A stretch of 35,405 bases of DNA from a virus (UHGV-0379469), one strand, 5' to 3'. Positions 1-35,405 are shown, counted from the first letter of the stretch. The notes: generated from the letters alone by a model not told the origin. A program made the numbers and translations.

Positions 1-405
1 ACACCACCAACGGGCTGGCTGAAATGTAACGGTGCAGCATTTTCTTCTGAAATGTATCCCAGACTGGCAAGGGCTTATCCCACCAATAAATTACCGGATT
101 TACGCGGTGAATTTATCCGTGGCTGGGATGATGGGCGCGGGGTGGATGCCGGAAGGGGCATCTTAAGCATGCAGGGGTGGTTAACAGGAAGTCATTATCA
201 TAATATTCGGTCATGGGATGCGTGGGATAACACGGTACTGGTGCCAAATGACAAAGGAGGGGATAGTCTGTTGTCGACAGATAACGCCGTCCGGCAAGGT
301 GCAATTAACGGTAGATTTACCAGTCAATACAGAACGGAATCCTCAGATGGGAATGAAAGCCGCCCACGCAATATTGCCTTCAATTATATTGTGAGAACCG
401 CATAA
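1..405 (+). CDS. H: tail fibre protein H, C-terminal variable (receptor-binding) cassette in the expressed orientation; the 5' part of the same gene is 34215..35405 (wraps the window junction)
   Basis: Reading frame is continuous across the end/start junction (...PVPWSSA|TPPTGWLKCNGAAF...); stop TAA 403-405; C-terminus ...RPRNIAFNYIVRTA matches the end of the silent cassette. Confidence 0.85.
   Translation, partial: TPPTGWLKCNGAAFSSEMYPRLARAYPTNKLPDLRGEFIRGWDDGRGVDAGRGILSMQGWLTGSHYHNIRSWDAWDNTVLVPNDKGGDSLLSTDNAVRQGAINGRFTSQYRTESSDGNESRPRNIAFNYIVRTA
16..137. repeat. inverted repeat, left copy (122-bp perfect core; imperfect homology extends about 35349..35405 and 1..152)
   Basis: Bases 16..137 are the exact reverse complement of 1309..1430 (checked base by base; first mismatches at 15 and 138). 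Confidence 0.9.
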
Positions 406-1016
406 TGAATAACGCGATATTAAATGATGACCTTATTGCCGTACAGGCAGGAAACATCGTCGTTTATAACTATGATGGTGAAACACGGGAATATATTTCC
501 GAATCAACTGAATATCTTGCTGTGGGTGTCGGTATTCCGGCAAATTCCTGTTTAGATGCCCCGGGCGCACATAAAGCGGGCTATGCTATCCGCCGTTCGG
601 AGAATTTAAGTTCATGGGAGTATGCGCCAGACCATCGTGGTGAAACCGTCTATAACACTGACACGGGAAACACCGAAGAAATCACGACGCTGGGTGACTA
701 CCCGAAAAATACAACCACTATCGCCCCGTTAACACCATACGATAAATGGGATGGTGAAAAATGGGTGACAGATACTGAGGCACAACATGGTGCCGCAGTA
801 GAAGCGGCAGAAACCAAGCGCCAGTCACTGGCTGATGCGGCAATGGCTTCCATAAGTCTGATTCAGTTGAAGTTGCAGGCCGGGCGGAAGTTGACGCAGG
901 CAGAAACCACCCGGCTTAACGCCGTGCTGGATTATATAGACGCACTGAACGCAATGGATATAAACATGGCACCAGATATCAACTGGCCGGAAATACCACT
1001 GGCAGCAGTCAGTTGA
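405..1016 (+). CDS. tail fibre assembly chaperone (Tfa; P2 G / Mu U-like)
   Basis: 203-aa ORF; ATG overlaps H stop (TAATG); sits directly 3' of the fibre tip as Tfa genes do. Confidence 0.75.
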   Translation: MNNAILNDDLIAVQAGNIVVYNYDGETREYISESTEYLAVGVGIPANSCLDAPGAHKAGYAIRRSENLSSWEYAPDHRGETVYNTDTGNTEEITTLGDYPKNTTTIAPLTPYDKWDGEKWVTDTEAQHGAAVEAAETKRQSLADAAMASISLIQLKLQAGRKLTQAETTRLNAVLDYIDALNAMDINMAPDINWPEIPLAAVS

Positions 1017-1022
1017 ATATAA

Positions 1023-1502
1023 CTAAGCCGCCCTCACGATATAGTTAAATGCAATATTGCGGGGGCGGGTTTCACTACCACCTGTGTTACCAATACTTCC
1101 TCGTGAATGAAGCGTTGGTGATGGAATCAAACTCCCTCCTGTATTTGTGGCATCAAGCCCCCTGCCTTGTGTATATGTTTTTTTGAAAATCGTGGCCAAC
1201 TCCCATTCATCCTTTGTGTCATATCCATCGTTAGCTACAACAATATGGCGGTGTTTTTCCAACATCCCGGTTTGAATGCTCAATAAAGCGCGTGCTGCAT
1301 CAATTCCTCGCCCATCATCCCAGCCACGGATAAATTCACCGCGTAAATCCGGTAATTTATTGGTGGGATAAGCCCTTGCCAGTCTGGGATACATTTCAGA
1401 AGAAAATGCTGCACCGTTACATTTCAGCCACCCCGTTGGCGGCGTGGCTGAGGGCCATGGAACGGGCACACCAACGGGCAGCGCAGAGCCTTCCCCCAAA
1501 CC
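1023..1502 (-). CDS. silent alternative tail-fibre C-terminal cassette (promoterless; would fuse to H after inversion)
   Basis: Minus-strand ORF whose first ~65 codons repeat the H junction peptide (GLGEGSALPVGVPVPW...RGWDDGRG) then diverge; own stop at 1023-1025; ends ...RPRNIAFNYIVRAA. Confidence 0.7.
   Translation of the reverse strand, partial: GLGEGSALPVGVPVPWPSATPPTGWLKCNGAAFSSEMYPRLARAYPTNKLPDLRGEFIRGWDDGRGIDAARALLSIQTGMLEKHRHIVVANDGYDTKDEWELATIFKKTYTQGRGLDATNTGGSLIPSPTLHSRGSIGNTGGSETRPRNIAFNYIVRAA
1309..1430. repeat. inverted repeat, right copy (perfect core)
   Basis: Exact reverse complement of 16..137. Confidence 0.9.
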
Positions 1503-1516
1503 AACGTTTTCGTTTT
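1491..1516. other. 26-bp hix/gix-like recombination crossover site (right)
   Basis: TTCCCCCAAACCAACGTTTTCGTTTT; its inner 14 bp (TTCCCCCAAACCAA) equal the reverse complement of the inner half of the site at 35335..35360; central AA dinucleotide; lies at the edge of the inverted repeat next to the invertase gene. Confidence 0.7.
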
Positions 1517-1570: not shown

Positions 1571-2170
1571 ATGCAAATTGGCTATATTCGTGTGTCAACA
1601 AATGACCAGAACACGGATTTACAACGCAATGCACTGAACTGCGCAGGATGTGAACTGATTTTTGAAGATAAAATCAGCGGAACGAAATCAGCCAGACCGG
1701 GATTGAAAAAACTGCTCAGAACGCTATCAGAAGGAGATACGCTGGTTGTCTGGAAGCTGGACAGACTGGGCAGAAGTATGAAACACCTGATCACGCTTAT
1801 TGAGGAATTGCGAGAAAAAGGTGTTAATTTCCGTAGTCTGACGGACAGCATTGACACATCAACACCCATGGGGCGTTTCTTTTTTCACGTCATGGGGGCT
1901 TTAGCCGAAATGGAACGTGAATTAATTGTAGAGCGTACACTGGCCGGGCTGGCAGCAGCACGCGAACAAGGACGCATTGGCGGACGTCGCCCGAAGTTGA
2001 CAAAAGAACAACACGAGCAAATAGCGAGGCTGATTAAAAACGGTCATGACAGGAAACAACTGGCGATCATTTACGACATCGGCATATCGACGATTTATCG
2101 TTATCACCCTGTAGGCGATATACAGGCTGAAGAAACAACCAGGCAGACTCAGGAAAATGAAAACCGCTAA
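1571..2170 (+). CDS. site-specific DNA invertase, serine recombinase of the Hin/Gin/Cin/Pin family
   Basis: MQIGYIRVSTNDQNTDLQRNAL... N-terminus with catalytic-serine motif, C-terminal HTH; ~199 aa; adjacent to the invertible segment. The ORF-track start at 1376 is an in-frame upstream extension. Confidence 0.9.
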   Translation: MQIGYIRVSTNDQNTDLQRNALNCAGCELIFEDKISGTKSARPGLKKLLRTLSEGDTLVVWKLDRLGRSMKHLITLIEELREKGVNFRSLTDSIDTSTPMGRFFFHVMGALAEMERELIVERTLAGLAAAREQGRIGGRRPKLTKEQHEQIARLIKNGHDRKQLAIIYDIGISTIYRYHPVGDIQAEETTRQTQENENR

Positions 2171-2196: not shown

Positions 2197-2691
2197 TCAA
2201 AACAGCCCTTTAACGGAGCTGGCCGCGCTGTTAAGGGATGATGTGACCTTATCTTTGAAGCCGGACAGCATATCACTGAACGATGAGGATTGCAGACGCT
2301 CCCGCAAATCCTCATCACAGCGTTCAAGGGTCAGTGAAAATTCTATCTTTTTCGCCTTACCGTAGCGATCAAACTCGGAACGGGTCGTATTCGTTTCAGT
2401 CAGTACATACATGCCGTAAATCTGCCCGACACCATCAATCAGAGGCCAGGGGCGTCCTGTATATGCCTGCGTGGTCAGCAACGAAAGCGACACTTCGCCA
2501 CCTGTAATTTCAGGATAAAGCACGCCGGAAAGCACGATGCGATCATCACCTGCGCCGATATACTGCCAGCTTGCTGAACGGTTAACGCGTTCATTTTTCA
2601 CATGCCGCCAGCTTTTGTTTTGCTGTAACTGCTGATGCGGCAATGTGCGCAGCTCAAAAACAAACATGCCGTAGATCATCATCATGGCCAT
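2197..2691 (-). CDS. U: tail protein U
   Basis: 164-aa ORF immediately 3' of the tape measure gene on the same strand; size and position as P2 gpU. Confidence 0.7.
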   Translation of the reverse strand: MAMMMIYGMFVFELRTLPHQQLQQNKSWRHVKNERVNRSASWQYIGAGDDRIVLSGVLYPEITGGEVSLSLLTTQAYTGRPWPLIDGVGQIYGMYVLTETNTTRSEFDRYGKAKKIEFSLTLERCDEDLRERLQSSSFSDMLSGFKDKVTSSLNSAASSVKGLF

Positions 2692-2697
2692 GACTCC

Positions 2698-5541
2698 TCA
2701 ATCTTTATCGTAAAAACTGCCACGTCCGGCACGGTCGCGTCGTTCCAATTCTGCCCTGACCATTTCACCGACCAGTTTCGCCAGTTCGCGGGGATTCTGT
2801 GTAACAACGTTATGCAGATGAACATGAATTTCACCGCCAAATCCGGAGGCAACAGGCTCCCGGTTACGGGAAGTTGCAGGAGCTGATGCCACTGGCGATC
2901 GTATGGCCTCCGCCACCGGGCGGGAGCTGGCCGCAACAACAGGGACCAGCGCCGGAGGCAGCGGAGCCGGAACCACGGGTGTGATATTAATTGCGGGGGC
3001 AGGCTTACTGACCTGCGCAATCTTCCGCTCCTGCCACTCCCCACGAACAGCAAGTGCGCGGGGCAGGTTCTTAAAGACAATATCGCCGGGGCCAATGCGT
3101 TTTTTCGTCTCATCAACCAGCTTACCTGTGTTATCAGCAATTTTGCTGAGTCTGCGTAGCGTACCGGTATTGCTGTCTGTGAGCGGTTTGTTGTCTTTGG
3201 GCTTATCACCTCCGGTACCATTGCCATTTTCCACAGGCTTCGGCGGATTGATTTTCGCCAGGTCCCCCTGAAGCAAGGCAACCTTGTCCTGAAGAATGGC
3301 CGCACGCTGTGCGTCTTCGATTTTCTTGCGCGCCCTTTCCGCTTCATCCGGAAGCACACCGAGCTTTTCAAGTATCCACGCCAGCGTATCCAGCAACATT
3401 TTTGCAGGTGTCAGAACAAGCTGTAACGCACCGCCAAGAACGTTACCGAATATCTCGCCAGCACTGGTACATTTATCCAGCGTTTCCTTGCTGGACTCCA
3501 TCGGTGACAGCAGCGATTTAAACCAGTTAAACACCTGGCTGATCCCGCTTCCGATTGCGTCAAAAACAGGACCAAACCGTTCAAAGGTTTCGCGCAACGG
3601 GGTCAGCCTTTCCATAATCCCGCTGAACACCCCGGCAAAAAATGCCCTGATGGGATCCCAGTATTTCCAGATGAGAACGGCAGCTCCGGCGAGCGCAGCC
3701 ACAATAAGACCAACCGGACTGAACAACGCCCCGATAGCGCCCCCCAGTAAAGAAACGGAACCCGTCACCATTCCCCACAGCGCAGGCAACACCCTGACGA
3801 CATTCATTGACCGGGTAAGAATGTCAAAACCAAGACGCAGGGTGGCCAGCTTCCCGTAAAGCACCCCAATAACCAGCGACAACGAGCCAATCGTTGCAGT
3901 CATTGCCAGCAACGCACCGCCTGCTATCAGCAGCTGGCGCGTCAGTACCGGATGGGCCTGCGCCAGCGCCGTCACCCTTGATACCACCCGCGTGAGCCAC
4001 TGCGTGACAGAACGCAGCGGACCGTCAATCAGATCTGCAATGCGGATGCGCAACCCTTCCCATGCACTGCCGAGTGATTTCAGATCGCCGTCAAGGTTGT
4101 TGGCCATAACCTTTGCTGTGCGTTCAGCCTCACCGCGCGCGCCTTCAAGTTCTTTTCTCAGTTTGGGTAAGGAACCGTCACCCGCTGCATCAACGAGCGC
4201 CATAAACGATGTGAAAGCCTCTTCTCCGGCAATGTCCTTAAAGAACGATACCCGGTCAACTTCCCCGTATTTGCGGGTGGCTTTATAAAGGTCGGCCAGC
4301 ACATCCTCCATCGGGCGCATTTTGCCCCCGGCATCCGAGACAGACACGCCCAGCTCTTTCAGCGCCTCTGCTGCCGCCTTTGGCGGTGATGCCAGACGAG
4401 CCAGGCTGGCACGCATTGCCGTCCCGGCATCACTTCCCCTGATACCCATATTCGCCAGCACGCCCGCCATCGCTGCGGCCTGCTCCAGCGATATTCCCAG
4501 CTTGCCCGCCACCGGACCTGCATATTTCATGGTTTCGCCCAGTGCGCGAAGGTCAGTGTTGGTACGGGTAAACGCTGCGGTGAGTGTGTCACCGACCCGA
4601 TCCATCTGGTCAGCAGAAAGGCCGAACTGCGTCAGGATATTTGAGCCAATATCTGCCGTCTCGCCGAGATCCATACCGCCAGCCGTTGCCATGCTCAGCA
4701 CGCCGGGAAGCGCAGCCTGAATGGCCTGCGGTGTGAAGCCAGCCATTGCAAGAAATGCCTGTCCACTGGCGGCATCGCCTGCGGTGAACTGCGTTTCAGA
4801 GCCAAGTTTTAACGCCTGCTCACGCAGCGCCTTAAACTGCGGGCTGTTCTGGTCGATTCGCGTCAGTGCCTGAACGCGGGACATCTCTTTGCCGAACCCG
4901 ATCGCAGGCTGCAAAAAACGCCCGGCAGCATAGCCGCCCGCCGCTGCCGCACCAATTGCCAGCGCACCACCTGTTTTCAGTTTTCCCGCTGTTTCCTGCG
5001 CGCGCGAATACCGCTCACGCGCCCGCGTTACACGCGCAAGCGCCTGCCGTTCGCGTTCAAGCTGGTTGTTGTACTGTTCGGTGCGTCTGATGGCCTGCTG
5101 GATGGTGTTATCGCTGCCTGTCAGGGAAATGCCGTGGCGTTTCAGCTCTCCGCCAAGTTCCCGCATTTTCTGAATTTCCCGTGTGCGCGATTCATTCAGG
5201 CGTTCAAGCCGGGTGCTTAACTGCTGCATCAGCTTTTGTTGTTTTTCGCTGAGCACTGTACCCGTGCGTTGTAACTGATTAAGGGCGTTAAGCTGGCGTC
5301 GTGCTTTCAATATGCCAGCATCCGCTTTACTGACAGCGTCACGGGCGCGCTCAAATGAACGCGCCTGACGCTCGAGATTTTTGATCGCCCCCTGCGTTCG
5401 CTGGATGGAGTCACCAAACTGCCCCATCAGGCGGCGGGCGTTTTCGGCAGGCCGGGTCAGCCTGTCAACGGCGCTGAAAGCGACCCGGATGTCAAGAGTC
5501 TTCATTGTCTGCATTCCCGCTGCGAAGTGCCGCCCGCTCAC
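2698..5541 (-). CDS. T: tail tape measure protein T
   Basis: 947-aa ORF, Ala/Gly-rich and coiled-coil N-terminal half with hydrophobic central segments; follows the E/E' chaperone pair; exact start uncertain (alternative Met 27-36 nt downstream). Confidence 0.85.
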   Translation of the reverse strand: MSGRHFAAGMQTMKTLDIRVAFSAVDRLTRPAENARRLMGQFGDSIQRTQGAIKNLERQARSFERARDAVSKADAGILKARRQLNALNQLQRTGTVLSEKQQKLMQQLSTRLERLNESRTREIQKMRELGGELKRHGISLTGSDNTIQQAIRRTEQYNNQLERERQALARVTRARERYSRAQETAGKLKTGGALAIGAAAAGGYAAGRFLQPAIGFGKEMSRVQALTRIDQNSPQFKALREQALKLGSETQFTAGDAASGQAFLAMAGFTPQAIQAALPGVLSMATAGGMDLGETADIGSNILTQFGLSADQMDRVGDTLTAAFTRTNTDLRALGETMKYAGPVAGKLGISLEQAAAMAGVLANMGIRGSDAGTAMRASLARLASPPKAAAEALKELGVSVSDAGGKMRPMEDVLADLYKATRKYGEVDRVSFFKDIAGEEAFTSFMALVDAAGDGSLPKLRKELEGARGEAERTAKVMANNLDGDLKSLGSAWEGLRIRIADLIDGPLRSVTQWLTRVVSRVTALAQAHPVLTRQLLIAGGALLAMTATIGSLSLVIGVLYGKLATLRLGFDILTRSMNVVRVLPALWGMVTGSVSLLGGAIGALFSPVGLIVAALAGAAVLIWKYWDPIRAFFAGVFSGIMERLTPLRETFERFGPVFDAIGSGISQVFNWFKSLLSPMESSKETLDKCTSAGEIFGNVLGGALQLVLTPAKMLLDTLAWILEKLGVLPDEAERARKKIEDAQRAAILQDKVALLQGDLAKINPPKPVENGNGTGGDKPKDNKPLTDSNTGTLRRLSKIADNTGKLVDETKKRIGPGDIVFKNLPRALAVRGEWQERKIAQVSKPAPAINITPVVPAPLPPALVPVVAASSRPVAEAIRSPVASAPATSRNREPVASGFGGEIHVHLHNVVTQNPRELAKLVGEMVRAELERRDRAGRGSFYDKD

Positions 5542-10975: not shown

Positions 10976-10985
10976 GGAAACCGCG

Positions 10986-11809: not shown

Positions 11810-12829
11810 TTAATCCCCCGTGGACACTGCGTGGACACTCACGCCACCTTTCAGCGGATTAAGGGCCACCGCATCCTGCAGGTAATCCGGTGCAAAATGT
11901 GCATATGCCATTGTTTGCTGAATGGTTGCGTGGCCAAGAATCTTCTGAAGCGCAATAATGTTTCCTCCGTTCATCACAAAATGGCTGGCGAACGTATGCC
12001 GCAGCACATGTGCAGCCTGGCCTTTTGGCAAATCGGGCTTAACTCTTTTCAGCGCCAAGCAGAATTCCCGGTACTTCACCTCAAACAAGCCGCCTGTTTC
12101 TCTGGTTTTGATCGCCTCACAAACTGCCTGCGAAATTGGCACTGTTCTCTTTCGGCCATTTTTGGTTTCAAGAAACGTTACACGGTTATGAACTATCTGT
12201 TCACCACGAAGCTTACAGGCTTCACTCCAGCGCGCCCCCGTGCTTAAACACAAAAGCGCAACACGCCAGTAATCGCCCTCCAGTGTATCGAGCAATAACG
12301 CCACTTCCTTCTGGGACAGGAAAGCCATTTCTCGTGGAGATACATAAAGAATAGAAATTCCCCTTACCGGATGTTCTGCATCCCAGAGGCCTATTTTCTT
12401 CAGTACGGTAAACATTCCGGATAACCGATTCATGTATCTGTTAGCAGATGACGGTTTCAATCCATCAGCTATCTTTTGAGAACGCCACGCGATAATTTTT
12501 AGCTTATCAAGATCCACAGCCTGCATATCAGCGCCAAGCTCATTGATTATGTTGCGCAGTTGTTTTCGGTCTTCTTCCGCCTTACGCCTGTGCTGGCCGT
12601 GATACATCCACCACAACTCAAGCAAATCATTTAGCGTTCGACGATCACGGTAGCCCTGTATATATTCCCGCTTTTCAGCGTTCGCCATGATGTAGCGTTC
12701 AGTGGCCACCGCTACCGATTTTTTGTCAAATACCTTACGCACGCGCTTTCCCTTGCGTCCGTTCGGCCTGATGTCCAGCAAATAACGACCATCTTCGAGC
12801 TTCTTAATCGACATTGCGAAGCCCTCCAA
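11810..12829 (-). CDS. int: tyrosine integrase (P2 Int-like)
   Basis: 339-aa ORF; C-terminal catalytic region ...HVLRHTFASHF...LGHATIQQTMAYAHFAPDY with the R..H..R..Y signature. Confidence 0.9.
   Translation of the reverse strand: MEGFAMSIKKLEDGRYLLDIRPNGRKGKRVRKVFDKKSVAVATERYIMANAEKREYIQGYRDRRTLNDLLELWWMYHGQHRRKAEEDRKQLRNIINELGADMQAVDLDKLKIIAWRSQKIADGLKPSSANRYMNRLSGMFTVLKKIGLWDAEHPVRGISILYVSPREMAFLSQKEVALLLDTLEGDYWRVALLCLSTGARWSEACKLRGEQIVHNRVTFLETKNGRKRTVPISQAVCEAIKTRETGGLFEVKYREFCLALKRVKPDLPKGQAAHVLRHTFASHFVMNGGNIIALQKILGHATIQQTMAYAHFAPDYLQDAVALNPLKGGVSVHAVSTGD
11820..11838 (+). repeat. putative integrase arm-type binding site (dimeric direct repeat), overlaps int 3' end
   Basis: GTGGACActgcGTGGACAc; encodes ...VSVHAVST of Int. 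Confidence 0.5.
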
Positions 12830-17021: not shown

Positions 17022-17411
17022 ATGATTGACGCTCATGACTTCACAAGATGGGTGCGCACACAGGACACCCGTCTGGCTCCCGTTCTTCAGGGATTATTTG
17101 ATCTCTACATCCGTGGTCGTGACAACAGAGCACGCACCACAAAACCGGAGAATGCAGACACCCTTTATTTCACAGTAGACGACTGCTACCGCGTGGACTT
17201 CACACCACACGGGCTGGCGTTGCACTGCCTGACACCACACGGAGAATCACTGCTGGCGTATTACGACTCCCCGGCCTCCGTATTTGCGGCAATGCTGGCG
17301 CATCGCACTGCTGGCGGGTGTGCCTCGCTGAGTGAATACACCGCTGAATTTAACCGCCTTTCTGCCCTCTTCTCGCAGGAGTGGCAGCGCGTGACGGGAT
17401 ACCAGCCATGA
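17022..17411 (+). CDS. hypothetical protein preceding the replication gene
   Basis: 129-aa ORF; its stop overlaps the A start (ATGA). Confidence 0.5.
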   Translation: MIDAHDFTRWVRTQDTRLAPVLQGLFDLYIRGRDNRARTTKPENADTLYFTVDDCYRVDFTPHGLALHCLTPHGESLLAYYDSPASVFAAMLAHRTAGGCASLSEYTAEFNRLSALFSQEWQRVTGYQP

Positions 17412-20248
17412 ATGAGTTTGCATGGAGCTGGAATGAACCACGGCCAGCCATTGATCCGGCCAGATTTACGGAGCACAGGCAGGAAACTGAAACCGACCTG
17501 CAACGCGCCATCCGTTACTACCTTGAGGCAGACAAAAAGGCTCTGGAAGAACAGGAAGCGAAGGAGGAAGCCTTTTTCGCACAATCCACCGTGGGTAAAA
17601 AACTCATGGCATCCCTTGAGGAAGCCGGACAGCGTGAAAAGCTGGCACAAAGCATCATCAGCAAGCGTCAGGCAACAGAACAAGACCCGGTGGCCCGTGC
17701 TTTTGCCACACTGAAGGTGCTTCCCGTTTATCTGCGTGAACCTCTGAGCCGCCACCTCTCTTTCCTGCGCAAAAAACAGGAAGCCGATCGCCAGAAAGGC
17801 AAAAAGAGCTGGCAGGCTGAACGCTACGCGCGCGGAACCCTGCGCAAAATATTCGAACGCCTGGACCGCACCGACCACCGCTGGCTGACACCGGGTTATC
17901 GCTCCCTTGCCGGACGCGAACGCCTGGATGATTTGCTTTACCTGCCGCAGCTCAACAAGCACCAGATACAGACGCTGGCCACCATGACGGCGGCGATGTT
18001 CAGCAGCACCTTCGAAAAACTCTGCGATGGCTTTGGCGCGACCGATGGTGAGCTGACCATGGAGGTGGCACTGAAGGCGTATCAGATGCTGGCCCGCATG
18101 GCGTTACACCTGCACGCCATGCCTCCACATTATGACGCACTGACAACAGACAAAGACCGCAAGAACGAACCGGACACGGAACTGCTGCCGGGCGCAATCC
18201 TCCGCCTGACCTGTGCGGAATGGTGGAAACGCAAACTGTGGCTGTTACGTTGCGAGTGGCGGGAAGAACAACTCCGCGCCGCCTGTCTGGTTTCCAGAAA
18301 AACATCGCCCTATCTGAGCCAGGACGCGTTAAGCGAGTTTCGCGCACAGCGCGAGAAAACACGCGATTTCCTGAAAAGTTTCATGCTGGAAAACGAAGAC
18401 GGGTTCACGATTGATCTCGAGACGGTGTATTACGCGGGAGTAAGTAACCCGGTCCACCGTAAAGCAGAAATGATGGCCACCATGAAGGGGCTGGAACTTC
18501 TGGCCGAAGCCCGTGGCGACAGAGCGGTGTTTCTGACTGTCACCTGCCCGTCAAAATACCACGCCACAACAGAGAACGGTCATCCGAATCCCAAATGGAA
18601 CGGGGCCACCATGCGCGACTCCAGCGATTACCTGGTTAACACGTTTTTTGCGGCGGTCCGCAAAAAACTGAACCGCGATGGCCTGCGCTGGTATGGCATC
18701 CGCACGGTGGAGCCTCACCATGACGGCACCGTGCACTGGCATATGATGGTCTTTGCACATCCGGACGAGATTGAAACCATCGTGTCCCATGTCTGCGATA
18801 TTGCCATTCAGGAAGACCGCCACGAGCTGGGCGATGACATAACTCCGCGTTTTAAGGCTGAGTACGTAGACGGCTCAAAAGGCACGCCAACCAGCTACAT
18901 CGCCACCTACATCGGAAAGAACCTGGACAGCCGCGCCGTGGATGGCATCGACCCGAAAACGGGCAAGCCACGCGTTGACCACGAAACCGGAAAATCAATG
19001 GCAGAGAGCGTGGAACGCGCCATCGGCTGGGCGCGCCTTCACCGGGTCCGCCAGTTCCAGTTCTTTGGCATTCCCTCTCGTCAGGTATGGCGTGAACTCC
19101 GCCGCCTTGCCAGCCAGATGGCACGCAACCCGGAAGGCCCACAACGGCTGAAGGATGATGCAATGGATGCGGTACTCGCTGCCGCTGATGCCGGGTGTTT
19201 TGCCACCTACATTGAGAAACAGGGCGGCGTACTTGTTCCACGCAAAGACTACCTGATTCGCACCGCCTACGACCTCGCAGATGAGCTGAACGATTACGGC
19301 GAACAGAGCGTACAGATTTACGGGATCTGGTCACCACTCATCGGGGAGTCTTCCCGTGTGTGCACACATCCGGATAACTGGAAGCTGGTAAGACGTAAAC
19401 CGGAAGCGGAAGACAGCGCCCGCGAAAATGGTTTTGACCTTCAGGGCGGCCCTGCCGCCCCTTGGACTCGTGGCAATAACTGTCCCCGTGTACAGGAAAC
19501 AGACAACAACGGGACAGAACAGCCGGAAGAACGGCCAGCACCGTGGCCGCAGCTTCCTGACGGCGTTGACGTGAACGAATGGGTGCGCTCACTGAAACGG
19601 CACGAACGCCGGGCGCTGATGCGTTCGCTGCGTGACAAACAGGCAAAAAACAGCAGTGATGAAATGCAGAACTGGACACAGAGCCGCAAACAGCCACAGC
19701 CTTTGCCTGATAACCACGAATTACTCGCTAAAGAATGGCGGGAGTCTGCTGAATCTCTCGGCCTGCATATCGGTGAACAGCAGATGCAGCACCTGTTACG
19801 GGGCGGCAGTCTGTACGTTGACGGCAGCATCATTGCACCGCAGGGATTTGAAATTGTACGCAAACCGGATACCCGCCCGGACAGCCGAATCACGCAGCTC
19901 TGGCAACGCCTGAGCCGTAACCACGGCGTAAGCAGCACGGAGATCCGCCATAACCCAGTCGCCAGCTATCTGGAACAACTAGGGGCATCAGACCCTGAAG
20001 CCGCCGCACGCCTGGCATCCACACTTCAGCAAGACCAGAACACCATGAAAACACCCGTTACCGTACTTTCTGACATGCTGCGCGCCATCCGCGACGCAGA
20101 GCACGAACAGAGAATCAGTGAAACAACTGAACGCGCCCGCCGCAAAGCAGACCTGCTGCGGGGTGACCTGACCAGTGGAAACAAAAAACAGACAGAAACG
20201 GGATTCACAAATCCCGTAAATGAGCAAAAAACGCGCCGCGAAATATGA
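17408..20248 (+). CDS. A: replication initiation protein A (HUH rolling-circle endonuclease)
   Basis: HUH motif ...GTVHWHMMVFAH... and catalytic Tyr motif ...TSYIATYIGKN...; about 946 aa, longer than P2 gpA as I recall it (761 aa). Confidence 0.85.
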   Translation: MNEFAWSWNEPRPAIDPARFTEHRQETETDLQRAIRYYLEADKKALEEQEAKEEAFFAQSTVGKKLMASLEEAGQREKLAQSIISKRQATEQDPVARAFATLKVLPVYLREPLSRHLSFLRKKQEADRQKGKKSWQAERYARGTLRKIFERLDRTDHRWLTPGYRSLAGRERLDDLLYLPQLNKHQIQTLATMTAAMFSSTFEKLCDGFGATDGELTMEVALKAYQMLARMALHLHAMPPHYDALTTDKDRKNEPDTELLPGAILRLTCAEWWKRKLWLLRCEWREEQLRAACLVSRKTSPYLSQDALSEFRAQREKTRDFLKSFMLENEDGFTIDLETVYYAGVSNPVHRKAEMMATMKGLELLAEARGDRAVFLTVTCPSKYHATTENGHPNPKWNGATMRDSSDYLVNTFFAAVRKKLNRDGLRWYGIRTVEPHHDGTVHWHMMVFAHPDEIETIVSHVCDIAIQEDRHELGDDITPRFKAEYVDGSKGTPTSYIATYIGKNLDSRAVDGIDPKTGKPRVDHETGKSMAESVERAIGWARLHRVRQFQFFGIPSRQVWRELRRLASQMARNPEGPQRLKDDAMDAVLAAADAGCFATYIEKQGGVLVPRKDYLIRTAYDLADELNDYGEQSVQIYGIWSPLIGESSRVCTHPDNWKLVRRKPEAEDSARENGFDLQGGPAAPWTRGNNCPRVQETDNNGTEQPEERPAPWPQLPDGVDVNEWVRSLKRHERRALMRSLRDKQAKNSSDEMQNWTQSRKQPQPLPDNHELLAKEWRESAESLGLHIGEQQMQHLLRGGSLYVDGSIIAPQGFEIVRKPDTRPDSRITQLWQRLSRNHGVSSTEIRHNPVASYLEQLGASDPEAAARLASTLQQDQNTMKTPVTVLSDMLRAIRDAEHEQRISETTERARRKADLLRGDLTSGNKKQTETGFTNPVNEQKTRREI

Positions 20249-22242: not shown

Positions 22243-22268
22243 AAGCGCCGATAAGGCGCTTTTTTTTG
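22243..22268 (+). terminator. rho-independent terminator
   Basis: AAGCGCC gataa GGCGCTT stem-loop followed by T8. Confidence 0.7.
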
Positions 22269-22720
22269 TTTGCACGATAGTGCACAAGTTTGCACAATTT
22301 TTTTGAACGACTTTTTGTACTTCCGGCCCGCATGGCGGCTGGATCCGTCAAGGATCCGTGCGTGCACAAAAAAATGCGTTTTTTCTGCGCGCAGGTGACG
22401 GGGGAACAGCCCGCGTTTCAGGGGGTAAATAGCATTCCCTGAACGATGTCGCAGCGACACAACAGAATGGCTGTATTTCTCACACTGAGCGTGAAAAAGA
22501 CGTGAGGGCTTTTGATTTGATGGGGTGACAGACAAGGCCGTCAAAATCGCACTGAGGCGGCGAGAACATGCAGTCAACGCGGTGGGATTGCGTAAGAGTC
22601 TGACTGTCGATGATGGCAATAAGCAGGAAAGCGTCGTGAAATTATCTGATTGATACAAGAGCTGGAGAGTCGGGGCATAAATTTTTTATGCCCCGGCGAA
22701 GCAGCAGACAAGCGAAGCGC
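22268..22720. other. probable cos / packaging region (not pinpointed)
   Basis: Noncoding tract at the 3' end of Q, where P2-type phages carry cos; three TGCAC motifs phased at 10 bp (22271, 22281, 22291), GGATCCGT direct repeat, stem-loop at 22670..22694. Confidence 0.3.
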
Positions 22721-22721
22721 G

Positions 22722-23768
22722 TCAGGATGTGGGCTGGGTGTCCAGCAGTGCGTAAGGGTTAAAGCGGATCACCTCTTCGCCAAGCCAGTCATTGATGTGC
22801 TTCATGGCCTCCATGACGGGCATCAGCTCGTTAATTGCGTAAACCCGCGCGGCCTTCTCCACATCACCAAACGCACTTTTTTCGCCCGGCATCGCCCCCA
22901 TCAGTTGCGGCGGAACGCGGTGCGCAGCCAGCACATCATCACGGGATGCCGCCTTAACATTCATGAACTCATCCTTTGCGGTGATCTGCTGGAACGGCAA
23001 AATTTGCACCCCCTCTTTGCCCCCGTTGGGCGCATGGATGAGCACGTTTTTAAACGCACCACCACCACGCGCACCCTGTAACGTTTCTTTCAGGGAGTCC
23101 ATGCTTTCGCGGTTTACCTGCGCTGCACCGATGTAGATGATGCACCCGGCGTGGGATCCATTGTCGTAGTACAGTTTTCTGAACATGTCCGCCGAATGAG
23201 ACAGGCTGGCCGAGAGTAATGCGCCAAGATATTCCGGCATGCCGTAAATTTCCTGGTTAATGTCCGGATTCATCAGGTGGCACACTTTGCCAGGGCGAAA
23301 CTGAAACGCGTCCTTGCCATCCTGCACATACCACCATGACTCAAGATCGCTTCCGCGTCGCATGTATTTCGCCAGGGCGTGCCGTAATTTAAGCGGCTCG
23401 CCGAGCATATTGCTCCGAAGCTCAAGGAATGCGTTACCGAACACAAACCAGTCCAGCGCCAGCGCCGAGAAATCCTGCCGGGAAAGCAGCGGGTGCGGGA
23501 TGTAGCAACCCAGCAACACATTGCGCTTAAAGTAAAGCGCAGACTGATGCCAGGACGTTTGCCGGGCAGCTCTTGCCAGACCGTACCAGTCCACCGGGGT
23601 TTCATACCACCGCCCGTTATCAGCACAGTACATATTGTCCAGCAGGTCATGCCCGGTCAGGCGATAAGGACCATCAAATGTGAATGCACTGAGCGACGAT
23701 TCTTTCCTGAGCGCATCAGCGAGATCAATGCGTGAACTCATGCGCACTTTTTTATTTTTTCTGCTCAT
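22722..23768 (-). CDS. Q: portal protein Q
   Basis: 348-aa ORF downstream of and overlapping (ATGA) the large terminase gene; size and position as P2 gpQ. Confidence 0.85.
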   Translation of the reverse strand: MSRKNKKVRMSSRIDLADALRKESSLSAFTFDGPYRLTGHDLLDNMYCADNGRWYETPVDWYGLARAARQTSWHQSALYFKRNVLLGCYIPHPLLSRQDFSALALDWFVFGNAFLELRSNMLGEPLKLRHALAKYMRRGSDLESWWYVQDGKDAFQFRPGKVCHLMNPDINQEIYGMPEYLGALLSASLSHSADMFRKLYYDNGSHAGCIIYIGAAQVNRESMDSLKETLQGARGGGAFKNVLIHAPNGGKEGVQILPFQQITAKDEFMNVKAASRDDVLAAHRVPPQLMGAMPGEKSAFGDVEKAARVYAINELMPVMEAMKHINDWLGEEVIRFNPYALLDTQPTS

Positions 23769-29229: not shown

Positions 29230-29231
29230 CA

Positions 29232-29555: not shown

Positions 29556-29609
29556 GTCGCAGGCTTAAAGCCGGTAATCACCATAAAAATCATTCACAGA
29601 GGTGACGAA

Positions 29610-30559: not shown

Positions 30560-30710
30560 TACTCCCACATGGGGAAATCTCGGTATATGGGGCGACCGCC
30601 TTCTGGATGCACTGGAAACCTGTAACGCGGATAAACGGGCCATTGAATTACTGGAACAGCGCAGGCTGCAACGACTGAACAACGAGGATAACAACCATGC
30701 TGAAAACTGA
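30420..30710 (+). CDS. o-spanin (Rz1/LysC-like lipoprotein) overlapping the i-spanin in the +1 frame
   Basis: MNALTLCLTLVLLTGC lipobox signal peptide, Pro-rich mature part. Confidence 0.65.
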   Translation: MNALTLCLTLVLLTGCAGTQNAPRPAPSVRLIPQTLTIPVTPPPFPDTPTWGNLGIWGDRLLDALETCNADKRAIELLEQRRLQRLNNEDNNHAEN

Positions 30711-31164: not shown

Positions 31165-31792
31165 GGCATTCACCCGCGTGGATGAAACCTTTGAGGCCAT
31201 CCGCGACAGCCTGAATCAGCAGGTCATCAATAACATCGCCAGAAAGCTGGCACAGGATTTACGCCGCGCCCAGCAGGCGCGTATCCGGTCACAGAAAGCG
31301 CCGGACGGGACCGCGTGGACACCACGCAGACGCCGCGTAACCCGGATACAGGAACGCATTCGCTTTATCTGGAATAACGAAGCACGCACGCTGAAAAACT
31401 GGCATCACGACACGGGGAAATACGGGCGAACCATTACCGGGTGGGATGAGGATAAAAACAATATCCGCACGTTTTACCGGGATGACATCGACCGTTTTCT
31501 GGAAATACGCACCCGGCGCATCAACCAGGACAGCACAAAGCGCGTCCCCATGTTCGTAAAACTGCGCACCGCCCGCTACCTGAAAGCCCGTGCAGATGCT
31601 TCCGGTGTGACGGTGGGTTACAGCGGCGTGGCCGCACGTATTGCACGCGTTCATCAGTTCGGTGAGCGCGATCAGGTTGCGCCGGGCATTTTCACCGATT
31701 ACCCGGTACGTGAGCTGCTGGGTATCAGCCAGGCAGATGAGCGCCTGATTTATAACACGGTGCTGGGCCGGATTGCGGAGGCTGTACGGTGA
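31157..31792 (+). CDS. S: tail completion / virion morphogenesis protein S
   Basis: ORF between R and V; start ambiguous (GTG 31148 or ATG 31157). Confidence 0.7.
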   Translation: MDKAFTRVDETFEAIRDSLNQQVINNIARKLAQDLRRAQQARIRSQKAPDGTAWTPRRRRVTRIQERIRFIWNNEARTLKNWHHDTGKYGRTITGWDEDKNNIRTFYRDDIDRFLEIRTRRINQDSTKRVPMFVKLRTARYLKARADASGVTVGYSGVAARIARVHQFGERDQVAPGIFTDYPVRELLGISQADERLIYNTVLGRIAEAVR

Positions 31793-32370
31793 GCGCAGAA
31801 CTCATGCGACTGCTGAGCAATATCATCCGCACCGGGATCATCTCTGAAGTTGATGAGAAGTCCTGGCGCGTGCGCGTTCGCAGCGGCGAACTGGAAACAG
31901 GCTGGTTGCGCTGGAACACCACGCGCGCGGGAGCCTTCAATGTGTGGCTGCCGCCATCACCAGGCGAACAGGTGGTCATTGCCTGCATTGGCGGCAACCC
32001 GGAAACCGCCATGATAATTGGCAGCCTGTGGAGTGATGCCAGTCCGGCCCCCGGCAAAAGCCTGAAAGAAATCGTGATCAGCGCGCCGGACGGCGCGGTG
32101 TTCCGCTACGACGCGGACGCAGGCGCACTGAGCGCCAGCGGCATGAAAACAGCCACCCTGAAGGCATCCGTCAGCGTGACACTGGATACGCCCGTCGTGG
32201 AATGCACAAACCTTCTGAGAACAGCGACGCTTGACGTCACAAAAGGGGGAAAGATGAGCGGCAATATCACGCACAGCGGTGGCAACTTCACCTCAAACGG
32301 CATCACTGTGCATACGCATAAACACGGTGGCGTTAAAGGTGGCAGCGATTCGACAGGAGGCCCGCAGTGA
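31789..32370 (+). CDS. V: baseplate spike / assembly protein V
   Basis: ...LSNIIRTGII.EVD... and ...GITVHTHKHGGV... as in P2 gpV; GTG start overlapping S stop. Confidence 0.8.
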   Translation: MSAELMRLLSNIIRTGIISEVDEKSWRVRVRSGELETGWLRWNTTRAGAFNVWLPPSPGEQVVIACIGGNPETAMIIGSLWSDASPAPGKSLKEIVISAPDGAVFRYDADAGALSASGMKTATLKASVSVTLDTPVVECTNLLRTATLDVTKGGKMSGNITHSGGNFTSNGITVHTHKHGGVKGGSDSTGGPQ

Positions 32371-32717
32371 CAACCCGCTACACAGGAATGAACCCGGACG
32401 GAACGGGAAACCTGAACGATATGGAGCACCTGAAACAGTCAGTCAGGGACATCCTGACCACCCCGCTGGCAAGCCGGGTTATGCGACGGGAATATGGCAG
32501 CCTTGTGCCTGATTTGATTGACGAACCCATGAATAACACCACGCGTCTGCAATGCATGAGTGCTGCCGTGATTGCGCTGACACGATGGGAACCCCGCATT
32601 GCCCTGGATGCCATCGACGTTGTCTGGAAAGCGGGAGGCCGCGCCGGGGTGACGCTGTCGGGCACTGTCATGCAGACCATGCAGAATGTTGAGTTAACCA
32701 TCACGCTGAGGGAGTAA
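32367..32717 (+). CDS. W: baseplate wedge protein W (gp25-like)
   Basis: MTTRYTGMN...; AGGAGG RBS; GTGA overlap with V. Confidence 0.8.
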   Translation: MTTRYTGMNPDGTGNLNDMEHLKQSVRDILTTPLASRVMRREYGSLVPDLIDEPMNNTTRLQCMSAAVIALTRWEPRIALDAIDVVWKAGGRAGVTLSGTVMQTMQNVELTITLRE

Positions 32718-32720: not shown

Positions 32721-33617
32721 ATGCCCGCCGTTGACCTTTCCCAGTTACCGGAACCCGCCATCATCGCGGAGCCTGACTTTGAAGCAATTCTGGCTGACAC
32801 AAAGGCCATGATGATTGCGTCCTATCCTGCCGAACAGCGTGAAGCCGTCTCCGCCGCGCTGGAGCTGGAATCGGAACCCCTGAACGTTATCGCTCAAACC
32901 ATGTCTTTTCGTGAAATGCTGTTACGCCAGCGGATCAATGAGGGGGCACGCGCCTGCATGTTAAGCCACAGCGCCGGGACAGACCTGGACAACCTCACGG
33001 GCAATATGAACACAAAACGCCTGACCATCACTCCGGCAACGGATACCACCGACGCAGTGATGGAAAGTGACACCTCGCTGAGACTACGGGCGCAACGGGC
33101 ATATGACGGTCTGAGTGTTGCTGGCCCTTCAGGTGCATATGAGTATTTTGCCCGCAGCGCCAGCGGTCTGGTACGCGATGCGCGGGCCATCAGCCCGTCT
33201 CCGGCCAACGTGACGGTTTCCATCCTGTCCACTGAAGGCGACGGCACAGCAACGGAGGCGTTGCTTAATACCGTTCGCGCCGTTCTGAATGCAGAGGATA
33301 CCCGCCCGGTGGCCGACCGCCTGACCGTACAGAGCGCCAGAATCGTGACATGGCGGCTGAATGCAAAACTGTACTTTTACCCCGGCCCGGAATCCGAACC
33401 TATTCTGGCCGCGGCTGAATCGTCGTTCAGGAAGTGGCTGGCTGAACAGGGGCTTATCGGTCAGGACGTGGCGTTGTCCGCCATTGCTGCCGCACTGCAT
33501 GTGCACGGTGTGCAACGCGTGGAGATAATCGAACCCACACAGAATATGGCCATCAGCGACATACAGGCGGCGCGCTGTGAGTCATTCACCATCAGCGAAG
33601 GTGGACGCAATGAGTAA
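32721..33617 (+). CDS. J: baseplate protein J
   Basis: 298-aa ORF between W and I. Confidence 0.8.
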   Translation: MPAVDLSQLPEPAIIAEPDFEAILADTKAMMIASYPAEQREAVSAALELESEPLNVIAQTMSFREMLLRQRINEGARACMLSHSAGTDLDNLTGNMNTKRLTITPATDTTDAVMESDTSLRLRAQRAYDGLSVAGPSGAYEYFARSASGLVRDARAISPSPANVTVSILSTEGDGTATEALLNTVRAVLNAEDTRPVADRLTVQSARIVTWRLNAKLYFYPGPESEPILAAAESSFRKWLAEQGLIGQDVALSAIAAALHVHGVQRVEIIEPTQNMAISDIQAARCESFTISEGGRNE

Positions 33618-34218
33618 TTCGTTGTTACCACCATCAGCCAGCAATTTCATGCGTTGTGCCGAAGCCGTCGGAACACGCATTACAGACATTCCGGTAGACC
33701 TCAACACGCTGTGGTCGCCGGACACCTGCCCGGTGCATCTGCTGCCTTATCTCGCCTGGGCGTTTTCCGTTGACCGCTGGGATCGCAACTGGCCGGAAGA
33801 GACAAAGCGACAGGTGATTCGTGATGCATGGCTGATACACCGACACAAAGGGACCATCAGCGCACTGCGAAGAGCCGTGGAGCCTCTCGGCTACCTGATT
33901 GAAGTAAAGGAGTGGTGGCAACTCAACGAGGAGCCAGGAACATTTCGCATTGTTGTCGGAGTACTTGATCAGGGCATCACCGATGAAATGTATCAGGAAC
34001 TTGAGCGCCTTATTGCGGATGCAAAACCAGTAAGTCGCCATCTGACGGGGCTGGCGATCAGCCTGAGTGTGAACGGAAAGATTTTCGTTGGTACGGGATG
34101 CTATCACGGCGATGCCCTGACGGTTTATCCCTACACCCCGGAGTCCATTATTGTCGAAGGGGATTATTTCCCTGCCCCGGCCATTCATTTAATTGATAAT
34201 CTGAGAGTAAACGCATGA
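33610..34218 (+). CDS. I: baseplate / tail protein I
   Basis: MSNSLLPPSAS...LNTLWSPDTCPVHLLPYLAWAFSVDRWD... as in P2 gpI; start overlaps J stop. Confidence 0.8.
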   Translation: MSNSLLPPSASNFMRCAEAVGTRITDIPVDLNTLWSPDTCPVHLLPYLAWAFSVDRWDRNWPEETKRQVIRDAWLIHRHKGTISALRRAVEPLGYLIEVKEWWQLNEEPGTFRIVVGVLDQGITDEMYQELERLIADAKPVSRHLTGLAISLSVNGKIFVGTGCYHGDALTVYPYTPESIIVEGDYFPAPAIHLIDNLRVNA

Positions 34219-35405
34219 CAGTGAAATACTACGCCATTCTGACTAATCAGGGCGCGGCACGACTGGCTAACGCGACGATGCTCGGCAGTAAGCTGAATCT
34301 GACGCAAATGGCCGTTGGTGATGCAAATGGTGTGTTACCAACACCAGACCCTGCACAAACAAAACTGATTAACCAGAAACGCATTGCACCGCTGAATCTT
34401 CTGAGTGTTGACCCTAACAATCAGAGCCAGATTATTGCGGAGCAAATCATCCCTGAAAACGAGGGAGGATTCTGGATCCGTGAGATTGGTCTTTATGATG
34501 ATGAAGGTGTACTCATTGCGGTGGCAAACTGCCCGGAAACGTACAAACCGCAGTTGCAGGAAGGCAGTGGACGCACCCAGACTATCCGCATGATTCTGGT
34601 TGTCACGAACACCGAAGCCATCACGCTGAAAATCGACCCGTCTGTGGTTCTGGCAACCCGCAAATATGTGGATGATAAAATCTCAGAGCACGAACAGTCA
34701 CGACGTCACCCGGACGCCTCGCTGACCGTAAAAGGTTTTACTCAGTTAAGCAGTGCAATTAACAGTGAATCAGAAACACTGGCCGCAACACCGAAAGCGG
34801 TTAAGGCTGCATATGACCTGGCTAACGGGAAATATACCGCCCAGAACGCCACCACTACACAAAAAGGGATTGTTCAGCTCAGTAGCGCCACGAACAGCAC
34901 GTCTGAAACGCTGGCAGCGACACCAAAAGCTGTTAAGGCGGTAATGGATGAAACGAACAAGAAAGCACCATTAAACAGCCCGGCACTGACCGGAACGCCA
35001 ACAACACCAACAGCGCCACAGGGGACTAATAGTACCCAGATCGCAAGCACGGCTTTCGTTATGGCCGCGATTGCCGCACTTGTAGATTCGTCACCTGATG
35101 CACTGAACACGCTGAATGAACTGGCTGCGGCGCTGGGCAATGACCCGAATTTTGCGACCACCATGACTAACGCGCTTGCGGGTAAGCAACCGAAGGATGC
35201 CACCCTGACGGCGCTGGCAGAGCTTGCTACATCAGCAGATAAACTCCCATATTTTACAGGGGCAGATCGTGCCGCGTTAACCGCGTTGACAAGTGTTGGA
35301 CGTGCCATTCTTGGTAAAACCAGCACTCAGGGAGTTCTTGATTACCTTGGTTTGGGGGAAGGCTCTGCACTGCCCGTTGGTGTGCCCGTTCCGTGGTCCT
35401 CAGCA
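34215..35405 (+). CDS. H: tail fibre protein H, N-terminal constant part (continues at 1..405 across the circular junction)
   Basis: ATG 34215 overlaps I stop; internal tandem repeat QLSSA.NS.SETLAATPKAVKA x2; no stop before the window end and in frame with bases 1..405. Confidence 0.9.
   Translation, partial: MTVKYYAILTNQGAARLANATMLGSKLNLTQMAVGDANGVLPTPDPAQTKLINQKRIAPLNLLSVDPNNQSQIIAEQIIPENEGGFWIREIGLYDDEGVLIAVANCPETYKPQLQEGSGRTQTIRMILVVTNTEAITLKIDPSVVLATRKYVDDKISEHEQSRRHPDASLTVKGFTQLSSAINSESETLAATPKAVKAAYDLANGKYTAQNATTTQKGIVQLSSATNSTSETLAATPKAVKAVMDETNKKAPLNSPALTGTPTTPTAPQGTNSTQIASTAFVMAAIAALVDSSPDALNTLNELAAALGNDPNFATTMTNALAGKQPKDATLTALAELATSADKLPYFTGADRAALTALTSVGRAILGKTSTQGVLDYLGLGEGSALPVGVPVPWSSA
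35335..35360. other. 26-bp hix/gix-like recombination crossover site (left)
   Basis: TTCTTGATTACCTTGGTTTGGGGGAA: 18 of 26 positions match the Salmonella hixL consensus as recalled (TTCTTGAAAACCAAGGTTTTTGATAA); inner half is the reverse complement of the inner half of 1491..1516. Confidence 0.7.

Follow-up and report, generated by a model that had tools for sequence, protein, structure and literature searches.

The DNA inversion systems of the Din family, including Min of plasmid p15B, Pin of e14, Cin of P1, and Gin of Mu, share a layout in which an invertase with Resolvase and HTH_7 domains adjoins the invertible segment, and the segment carries alternative C-terminal tail-fibre tips, each behind a common repeat. 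The Min system uses 26-bp crossover sites with an AA core; the sequences of the mix sites (including p15B mixQ''R') and of the pixR sites are listed in Table 3 of PMC3241671. Whereas these known segments reside on a P1-related plasmid, Mu, or e14, the system described here belongs to a P2-family phage. Systems of this family also feature a Fis-bound recombinational enhancer in the invertase gene or close to it. The underlying biology, in which a coliphage of the P88 type bears a tail-fibre switch of the Din family, is known; the P88 paper (PMC5285337) contains nothing on cos or the invertase.

The window, by which we mean the whole 35,405-nt stretch of DNA that was analyzed, is the genome of a P88-like temperate E. 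coli phage (Xuanwuvirus, Peduoviridae; P2 family) in its excised circular form. A 25-kb query aligned to PhiR44_2, P88_4B11, and Chuche with 94-96% identity over 73-80% of its length, and the P88 alignment covers 26.5 kb of the 35.4-kb window at 73-96%; this high nucleotide identity to P88-type phages over most of the genome places the window within Xuanwuvirus. We set the ORF map and Pfam matches of the window against the annotated records of its relatives (P88, KP063541.1; P88_4B11, LR595891.1; PhiR44_2, PV340564.1). These 35-37-kb genomes share with the window an identical gene order throughout and 94-96% identity over most of their length. The P88-type arrangement is recognizable by the inverted FI-U tail block (FI-FII-E-T-U on the strand opposite H/G), the gpA replication gene (17381..20248, plus strand; Pfam Phage_GPA, 1e-129) followed by ParM and a partition gene, int-C-cox at the att end, and, in P88 and P88_4B11, a DNA invertase after the tail-fibre cassettes. 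The window differs from P88 in having short Collar-domain tip cassettes in place of the long P88 H, and its int/att module (11041-14118) is unmatched in P88, yet the same in PhiR44_2. Relative to P88 and its relatives as a group, it has a GH108 endolysin in place of an M15 peptidase and an additional 340-aa ORF between D and ogr. The structural, lysis-control, replication (gpA), ogr, int/C/cox, and portal/terminase modules are also homologous to those of P2 (NC_001895.1), and the N-terminal two-thirds of H is ~88% identical in DNA to that of P2; however, P2 has neither an invertase nor alternative tips, its F-operon block is inverted relative to the window, and its att site differs.

We located an attP core, TTTTCATCAACAAGGATTTT, at 11608-11627 (20 nt; no strand assigned), flanked on both sides by phage arms. 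In NZ_AP027818.1, an integrated relative lying between flk and pdxB has a copy of this core at each end, the two being separated by 35,155 nt, and the host flanks of that prophage are not present in the window; the PhiR44_2 record begins at window position 11628. Between attL and attR, the whole of the integrated prophage runs collinear with the window, the only departures being the tip cassettes (1-1570) and a lysin allele (29533-30149). With all attL-attR modules collinear apart from these two replaced alleles, attP intact, and host DNA absent, the window matches in these respects what a complete circular phage genome would hold. The tyrosine integrase gene (int; 11810..12829, minus strand; Pfam Phage_integrase and Int_N), the portal gene (22722-23768, minus strand), and the large terminase gene (23768-25519, minus strand), the latter two also identified by Pfam matches, are all internal, as an earlier interpretation of the DNA (hereafter the sequence-only reading) had proposed, and its preference for a circular, excised form over an integrated prophage agrees with the intact attP, the two phage arms, and the absence of host DNA. 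The same reading counted cos-adjacent genes among the internal features, and cos itself could not be located by homology: the 19-nt cos end of P2 has no match in the window when up to 3 mismatches are allowed, and a blastn-short comparison of the circularised P2 cos region with the window found no similarity. The P2-type terminase and portal genes nevertheless lead us to expect cos packaging, and cos should lie in the region upstream of the portal gene (22258..22732, no strand assigned), which is conserved at 93-97% in relatives. The sole positional hint within it is a candidate cos end at 22316/22317, the position at which the two termini of the linear P88_4B11 record meet.

With attP and the cos region joined and host sequence absent, the best explanation is that the DNA was assembled from excised or replicating phage. 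Close relatives are commonly integrated as prophages, which might suggest an integrated prophage or a chromosomal excerpt with no circular form; we regard this as virtually inconceivable, and it was rejected based on the window sequence itself, which has phage DNA on either side of an undisrupted 20-nt attP core, none of the host DNA that flanks the integrated relative, and both of its ends inside the phage gene H.

The constant 5' part of H (Hc; 34215..35405, plus strand) begins with an ATG at 34215, comprises 397 codons with Pfam matches to Phage_tail_fib and Phage_fiber_2, and runs off the window end. Its translation ends with PVPWSSA, and base 1 carries on in frame (TPPTGWLKCNG) into the variable C-terminal cassette Hv1 (1..405, plus strand; 134 codons plus a stop at 403-405). 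As the sequence-only reading had anticipated, translation across the rotated junction yields one continuous H, of 531 aa; a full Pfam Collar domain (model 1-57 of 57) occupies residues 389-436 and spans the join at residues 397/398. The window ends have no direct terminal overlap of at least 8 nt. The exact 397-aa Hc product is also on record as a contig-end partial protein, and two MEGAHIT contigs have the 134-aa Hv1 product recorded at their start.

The sequence joined at 35405/1 aligns without a gap to an inverted copy, previously placed at about 1430..1502; we found that the pairing extends over 1273-1507. This copy forms the right arm of an invertible tail-fibre segment of the Min/Pin type, an identity that was missed when the copy was first described. 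The left arm (35344..35405 then 1..173, plus strand; 235 nt in total) pairs gaplessly with the right arm (1273..1507, minus strand), which is the 5' end of the silent cassette Hv'; position 35405 pairs with 1446, and base 1 pairs with 1445. The arms are mismatched at 35369, 35393, 35397, 35405, 3, 6, and 15, and they match exactly over positions 16-137. Exactly two crossover sites of this kind occur in the window, in inverted orientation, where none would be expected by chance. The left site, TTCCCCCAAACC AA GGTAATCAAGAA (35335..35360, minus strand; core dinucleotide 35347-35348), is identical at 26 of 26 positions to p15B mixQ''R' (PMC3241671 Table 3). The right site, TTCCCCCAAACC AA CGTTTTCGTTTT (1491..1516, plus strand; core 1503-1504), has the inner half, AA core, and CGTTTT common to the mix and pixR sites in the same table.

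Within the segment, Hv1 is followed by a G/U-like tail-fibre assembly gene (405..1016, plus strand; Pfam Caudo_TAP) and by Hv' (1023..1499, minus strand; Pfam Collar), for which the mechanical ORF reaches 1556 and relatives have a 158-aa gene call at the same position. Adjoining the segment is a gene for a 199-aa DNA invertase (1571..2170, plus strand), a small serine recombinase whose N terminus holds a resolvase domain (Resolvase PF00239, 2e-51) and whose C terminus holds a helix-turn-helix (HTH_7 PF02796, 1e-12); its P88 counterpart is annotated as a DNA invertase. Together with two inverted 26-bp sites that have a 2-bp core and fit the dix consensus, these features are those of a Din-family system. 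Alternative orders and orientations, a further property of that family, were observed across relatives only: the same cassettes adjoin Hc, adjoin the invertase, or stand behind another cassette, on either strand, and the 3-5 cassettes of a given relative come in permuted order, in the manner of Min. Each cassette retains its own repeat version whatever its order or orientation. Based on these sequence features, the serine invertase is predicted to recombine the 26-bp sites and thereby to fuse constant H to one or another C-terminal tip; ~200 nt of common sequence precedes every tip. The window as given differs from Min in having two sites and two tips only, and, read from its sequence alone, in a single tail-fibre assembly gene that would flip with Hv1.

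The closest relative (L017) has 99.91% identity to the window over 11 kb, and its tail-fibre region is laid out as Hc-IR-cX-IR-cY-IR-Hv1. The first and third repeat copies in this relative, those of cX and Hv1, share exactly the 145 nt that correspond to window positions 35402..35405 then 1..141 (plus strand; hereafter R), and they are 944 nt apart, the interval being occupied by cX and cY. The end-to-start join of the window falls inside R; the circle is thus closed within a repeat that is present twice in its closest relative, and not on unique sequence. When we searched complete E. coli genomes for the arrangement of this relative, only multi-piece matches were identified, never one piece.

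The haplotype linkage between cassettes and repeat versions distinguishes the two sides of the join. The repeat version that the window carries beside Hc (35349-35401; last 57 nt) accompanies cX in 10 loci, eight with the identical sequence and two that are 1 nt off. The Hv1 repeat version (35354A/35357A/35363T/35397C/35401T) occurs in 7 loci, and the remaining loci have other non-window versions; in every other locus with an intact repeat, Hv1 accompanies a non-window version, which in the draft assembly L016 differs from that of the window by 1 nt. The version proper to Hv1 holds whether the cassette lies beside Hc, beside the invertase, or behind another cassette. The complete chromosomes D72 and AR_0013 have a two-cassette Hc-Hv1-tfa-Hv'-invertase layout that is gapless like the window, but with the Hv1-type repeat. 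Based on this comparison, the two ends of the window most likely belong to different copies of the cassette-flanking repeat.

Two MEGAHIT contigs begin at window base 1. One of these, k141_7066 (97 kb), is from a sister sample and has Hc fused to cY; the other, k141_40771, is 35,542 nt long, with no more than 4 base differences from the window over its first 10,405 nt. We built a k=141 de Bruijn graph from the window plus 944 nt (cX and cY), and this graph resolved into unitigs of 35,542, 1,081, and 145 nt. The 35,542-nt unitig begins at base 1 and ends at base 137, reproducing the size and start of the real k141_40771, and 35,542 minus 137 equals 35,405, the length of the window. In contrast, the window closed as given has zero branches at k=141, so that there is no reason for a contig to start at base 1; the size and start were reproduced only with the 944 nt added. 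MEGAHIT contigs share their branching k-mer, for which the evidence here is the exact fit. We sought the predicted 1,081-nt sibling contig via its expected 124-aa product, which is not on record, nor is the 442-aa end product that we guessed for k141_40771.

We consider it likely that the circle was closed through the repeat by assembly, that the source has four tips, that the window skips cX and cY, and that the joined H is chimeric. The source region would most likely have matched the closest relative in its order, Hc-[cX]-[cY]-[Hv1+tfa]-<-[Hv']-invertase, with the sequences before cX and Hv1 identical over 145 nt (35402-35405 plus 1-141). Owing to this identity, an assembler running at k=141 would give one long contig bounded on both sides by R and extending from base 1 to base 137; the 137-nt end overlap would have been taken for a direct terminal repeat and trimmed, leaving a 35,405-nt "circle" that skips the ~944 nt of cX and cY. 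We infer that bases 1-137 of R are the trimmed terminal overlap of the source contig, and that this contig's genome also carried cX and cY; the graph branch could instead arise from a cX cassette in another co-resident prophage. The break is therefore most likely a de Bruijn-graph contig boundary and not an arbitrary opening of a finished circle. Since the ends meet inside a repeat of swappable tail-fibre tips, the circle probably lacks ~0.9 kb, and the H read across 35405/1 is probably an assembly chimera in which Hc with a cX-type repeat is joined to Hv1; the joining stretch is common to both tips, which is why the product looks like a plausible protein.

These observations modify the sequence-only reading, which described the window as a circular permutation of a complete replicon, opened inside H at a breakpoint that looked like an assembler artefact. 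The circular, host-free form and the opening within H hold, but the two ends likely derive from different repeat copies; an assembler effect at a repeat is likewise upheld, but as a product of the k=141 graph and not as the simple opening of a finished circle. The replicon is unlikely to be complete as described, given the 944 nt (cX and cY) between repeat copies in the closest relative, the cX-type repeat beside Hc, and the absence of the joined H from protein records.

Protein records also bear on whether the join is real. The Hc+cX protein (521 aa) was found exactly on 36 contigs, and Hc+Hv1 with Hv1's own repeat version (531 aa) was found exactly on 2 contigs, one of which is a 4.78-Mb chromosome; whereas both parental combinations are thus present, the joined 531-aa H of the window is absent among ~15 billion proteins. 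This absence, and the cX version of the repeat beside Hc, weigh against a finished two-tip circle (Hv1 and Hv') that was opened arbitrarily in H and whose joined H is real, for example through natural deletion or gene conversion. Such a circle would also leave unexplained, having no k=141 branch, why the base-1 start is common to an unrelated 97-kb contig and to a sibling exactly 137 nt longer than the window. We nevertheless weighed it seriously, as the join is in frame and gapless and leaves the Collar domain intact, no other module is missing, the size is typical for the genus, and in L016 the repeat joined to Hv1 is only 1 nt away from the cX type. The two-cassette layout of D72 and AR_0013, collinear across the join, further indicates that a real two-cassette phage is possible, although the repeat there is Hv1-type. 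On balance, we judge the finished circle unlikely. A related proposition is that the Hc/cX-type-repeat/Hv1 join is itself real, the window then being a natural derivative of a four-tip Min-type system in a P88-like phage, from which homologous recombination or gene conversion between the 145-nt direct repeats removed two receptor-binding tips. This is possible but doubtful; if true, cassette loss and repeat homogenisation would have been caught in a gut or environmental population, with the four-tip parent in sister samples.

A true two-cassette phage might also have been assembled into a contig that was cut at R by another element of the metagenome, such as a P2-like or P1-like prophage with an identical 145-nt cX stretch. 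The cX-type repeat is indeed widespread, occurring in 10 loci and, as an exact match to a 50-mer across the join, in 5 IMG/VR contigs; a single E. coli genome may have as many as 19-23 matching places, and P1-like plasmids have these cassettes too. However, this scenario needs Hv1 with a cX-type 35349-35401, a combination seen in no closed genome, and both the closest relative (99.9%) and k141_7066 from the sister sample put extra cassettes inside this same phage; we find it highly improbable. The 5 IMG/VR matches were rejected as independent proof of an Hc-Hv1 join, as all of them lie in the cX repeat copy, and the 50-mer had no match among GTDB species representatives.

Closure of the circle through the repeat, the reading that we prefer, resembles false "circular" or "complete" calls, in which a contig begins and ends in the same short repeat; here the overlap of 137 nt would be shorter than the k of 141, and trimming it would leave an apparently closed circle. 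Unlike in the usual case, the repeat serves a site-specific inversion system as its homology arm; the omitted DNA would therefore consist of alternative receptor-binding tips, and the reading frame is kept across the join. A contig may thus look closed and complete, with an in-frame gene and an intact domain over the join, and yet be closed through a repeat. Because the DNA dropped or mis-joined at this locus is the receptor-binding tip of the tail fibre, host-range inference, overlap-based "complete genome" flags, and catalogues of tail-fibre diversity would be affected. A warning sign is a terminal overlap shorter than the assembler k, in sequence that recurs elsewhere in the contig.

Two other causes of the break at 35405/1 were considered and rejected. 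The window's own left and right arms match exactly over 122 nt (16-137), which is shorter than k=141, and the exact stretch is shorter still in the sibling contigs. Inversion heterogeneity predicts breaks near 35347 and 35368 and does not explain the one at 35405/1; a Logan contig that stops at 35368 and incomplete H products of 375-384 aa are in keeping with such inversion-core breaks. More generally, the records include hundreds of H proteins cut off at residues 375-414, indicating that assemblies routinely break in this part of the gene.

The window is a P88-like phage of the genus Xuanwuvirus (Peduoviridae), with 94-96% identity to PhiR44_2, P88_4B11 and P88, a gene order common to all of them, and P2-type portal, terminase, gpA, integrase, Cox and ogr genes. 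The whole integrated prophage of E. coli 2017.15.02CC (between flk and pdxB) is collinear with the window from attL to attR, except at the tail-fibre tips (1-1570) and the lysin allele (29533-29949 region; aligned gap 29533-30149). Two copies of a 20-nt core, TTTTCATCAACAAGGATTTT, stand 35,155 nt apart in that prophage; the window's copy, at 11608-11627, has both phage arms around it, which identifies it as attP. No host DNA is present in the window, and the portal, the terminase and the conserved region ahead of them are all internal. The sequence-only reading of a circular form is therefore right, and the intact attP together with the lack of host DNA excludes an integrated prophage. The P2 cos sequence was not found in the window; the termini of the linear P88_4B11 record map next to each other at 22316/22317, which is only a candidate cos position.

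Tail-fibre gene H had also been read in frame from the window end into its start, and the joined sequence as aligning without gaps to an inverted copy; both observations were borne out. From the ATG at 34215, 1,191 nt (exactly 397 codons) extend to the window end (...GEGSALPVGVPVPWSSA), and the frame is kept from base 1 (TPPTGWLKCNGAAF...) to a stop at 403-405. Translation across the join gives a 531-aa product, in which a complete Pfam Collar domain (residues 389-436) spans the join. The left arm (35344-35405 plus 1-173) pairs gaplessly with the right arm (1273-1507), placing 35405 opposite 1446 and base 1 opposite 1445; the arms mismatch at 35369, 35393, 35397, 35405, 3, 6 and 15 and are exact over 16-137. 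A search for direct terminal overlap between the window ends found none.

The inverted copy forms the right arm of an invertible tail-fibre segment of the Din family, which is accompanied by a 199-aa serine recombinase (1571-2170; Resolvase and HTH_7). The left crossover site (35335-35360) matches mixQ''R', a site of the p15B Min system, at 26/26 positions, as listed in a table of PMC3241671, and the right crossover site (1491-1516) has its inner half-site, AA core and CGTTTT in common with mix and pixR sites. A predicted crossover at 35347/8 x 1503/4 would swap the variable C-terminal cassette Hv1 (1-405; assembly gene after it) for a silent alternative tip, Hv' (1023-1499, minus strand). The window join falls 57 nt inside this segment. 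Whereas Mu, P1 and P88 have an assembly gene for each tip, the segment holds a single one (405-1016), which flips along with Hv1; Hv' has none of its own, and neither do cX and cY, the additional tip cassettes of relatives.

Three independent contigs share the boundary at the join. The first base of both ERZ27281687 k141_7066 (MEGAHIT, 97 kb, including host DNA) and ERZ27281037 k141_40771 (MEGAHIT, 35,542 nt) is window base 1, and the last base of NCBI contig DAJKAQ010000108.1 is equivalent to window 35405. Contig k141_40771 exceeds the window length by 137 nt and differs from the window at just four bases in the first 10,405 nt, all in the right arm. These bases (1368, 1371, 1375 and 1384), the sole differences from either MEGAHIT contig over the first 10.4 kb, agree in the window with their left-arm partners (78, 75, 71 and 62), leaving the arms exact across 122 nt; they reflect either gene conversion between the arms or a consensus artefact. 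Partial products of 375-414 aa, cut off at contig ends, are also plentiful in the H protein cluster. A Logan contig from run SRR7351731 matches window 23633-32460 at 100% identity; this run and the ENA assemblies ERZ27281037 and ERZ27281687 are candidates for the source of the window.

The closest relative, ERZ28626847 scaffold_252, is 99.91% identical across 11 kb. Its tip order is Hc-(IR-cX)-(IR-cY)-(IR-Hv1-tfa)-(inverted Hv'-IR)-invertase, where Hc is the constant 5' part of H (34215-35405), IR the inverted-repeat sequence preceding each tip and tfa the assembly gene. Repeat copies 1 and 3 of this relative, spaced 944 nt apart, are identical across exactly window 35402-35405 plus 1-141 (145 nt). 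A graph was constructed at k=141, with branching k-mers common to adjoining contigs. The window closed as given yielded zero branches, and the window plus the 944-nt insert yielded three unitigs of 35,542, 1,081 and 145 nt. The longest runs from base 1 round to base 137, in agreement with the real contig k141_40771 in length and start; subtracting its 137-nt self-overlap leaves 35,405 nt, the window length. The predicted 1,081-nt sibling contig, sought through its expected 124-aa product, was not found. DAJKAQ010000108.1, an independent E. coli draft contig, carries a repeat version unlike that of the window, and its end at 35405 is unexplained by the k=141 model.

Site-specific crossover takes place at the core, so every tip keeps its own ~200-nt repeat. 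Among the fetched loci, the window version of 35349-35401 is tied to cX in 10, of which eight are identical and depart from the window at base 142. The Hv1 repeat reads 35354A/35357A/35363T/35397C/35401T in seven loci, with other non-window versions in the remaining intact-repeat loci, and the linkage of the Hv1-type repeat is independent of where Hv1 sits; the sole case of a nearly cX-type repeat on Hv1 is a draft assembly (L016). Exact protein look-up placed window Hc plus cX (521 aa) on 36 contigs and window Hc plus Hv1 via Hv1's own repeat (...PWPLA..., 531 aa) on two, of which one is a 4.78-Mb chromosome; H as joined in the window (...PWSSA... plus Hv1) is absent from the protein collection. 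Five IMG/VR matches to the join-spanning 50-mer were rejected as proof of an Hc-to-Hv1 join, as all lie in cX repeat copies.

The window had been taken for a complete circle whose break is an assembler artefact within a repeat. The circular form and the repeat-bounded break stand; completeness is doubtful, as the graph, the repeat linkage and the protein look-ups indicate that ~0.94 kb with cX and cY is probably missing. We consider it most likely, with fairly good confidence, that the window is a repeat-bounded contig whose 137-nt overlap was mistaken for a terminal repeat, giving a "circle" without these cassettes; H read over 35405/1 would then be a chimera. A true two-tip genome is less likely: it could have arisen naturally by deletion or gene conversion, or the branch could be due to some other element of the metagenome. 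A layout with two cassettes (Hc-Hv1-tfa-Hv'-invertase) does occur in the complete chromosomes D72 and AR_0013, but both carry the Hv1-type repeat, and a two-tip genome formed by deletion or gene conversion also has against it that the closed window is unbranched whereas adding 944 nt reproduces k141_40771. Each component is already known: the genus of the phage, tail-fibre switches of Min/Pin type and false circular closure through repeats. A repeat-bounded contig of this kind is a caution for completeness calls resting on terminal overlaps and for receptor-binding proteins read over contig joins.

A 340-aa orphan ORF (9170-10192, minus strand) lies between tail gene D and ogr. P88, PhiR44_2 and the KOr024 prophage lack it, and five E. 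coli chromosomes have it at 99.9% identity. It had no PADLOC or PHROG matches and a sub-threshold RiboL-PSP-HEPN match (21.9 bits; cut-off 28.4), and could represent defence-type cargo in a P2-family hotspot. Between ogr and attP, a hok/gef toxin gene and a TM2-domain gene (10348-11500) occur as in related prophages. The gpA replication gene is followed by genes for an actin-like segregation ATPase, ParM, and a small partition protein (20325-21600, plus strand), which are conserved in the genus and coexist with an integrase in a phage also found integrated. A variable cargo slot (21601-22257) separates the partition genes from the conserved region on the cos side; its gene content differs among relatives, and here it holds an 89-aa ORF (21965-22234) of PHROG 3941 (function unknown). 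The FI-FII-E-T-U tail block (2197-7782, minus strand) lies on the strand opposite to H/G and D, an orientation shared with P88 and relatives and reversed in P2. The lysis module (29533-30149) carries a swapped allele: the window and several relatives encode a GH108 and PG_binding_3 endolysin, whereas P88, KOr024 and 2017.15.02CC have an M15 peptidase.
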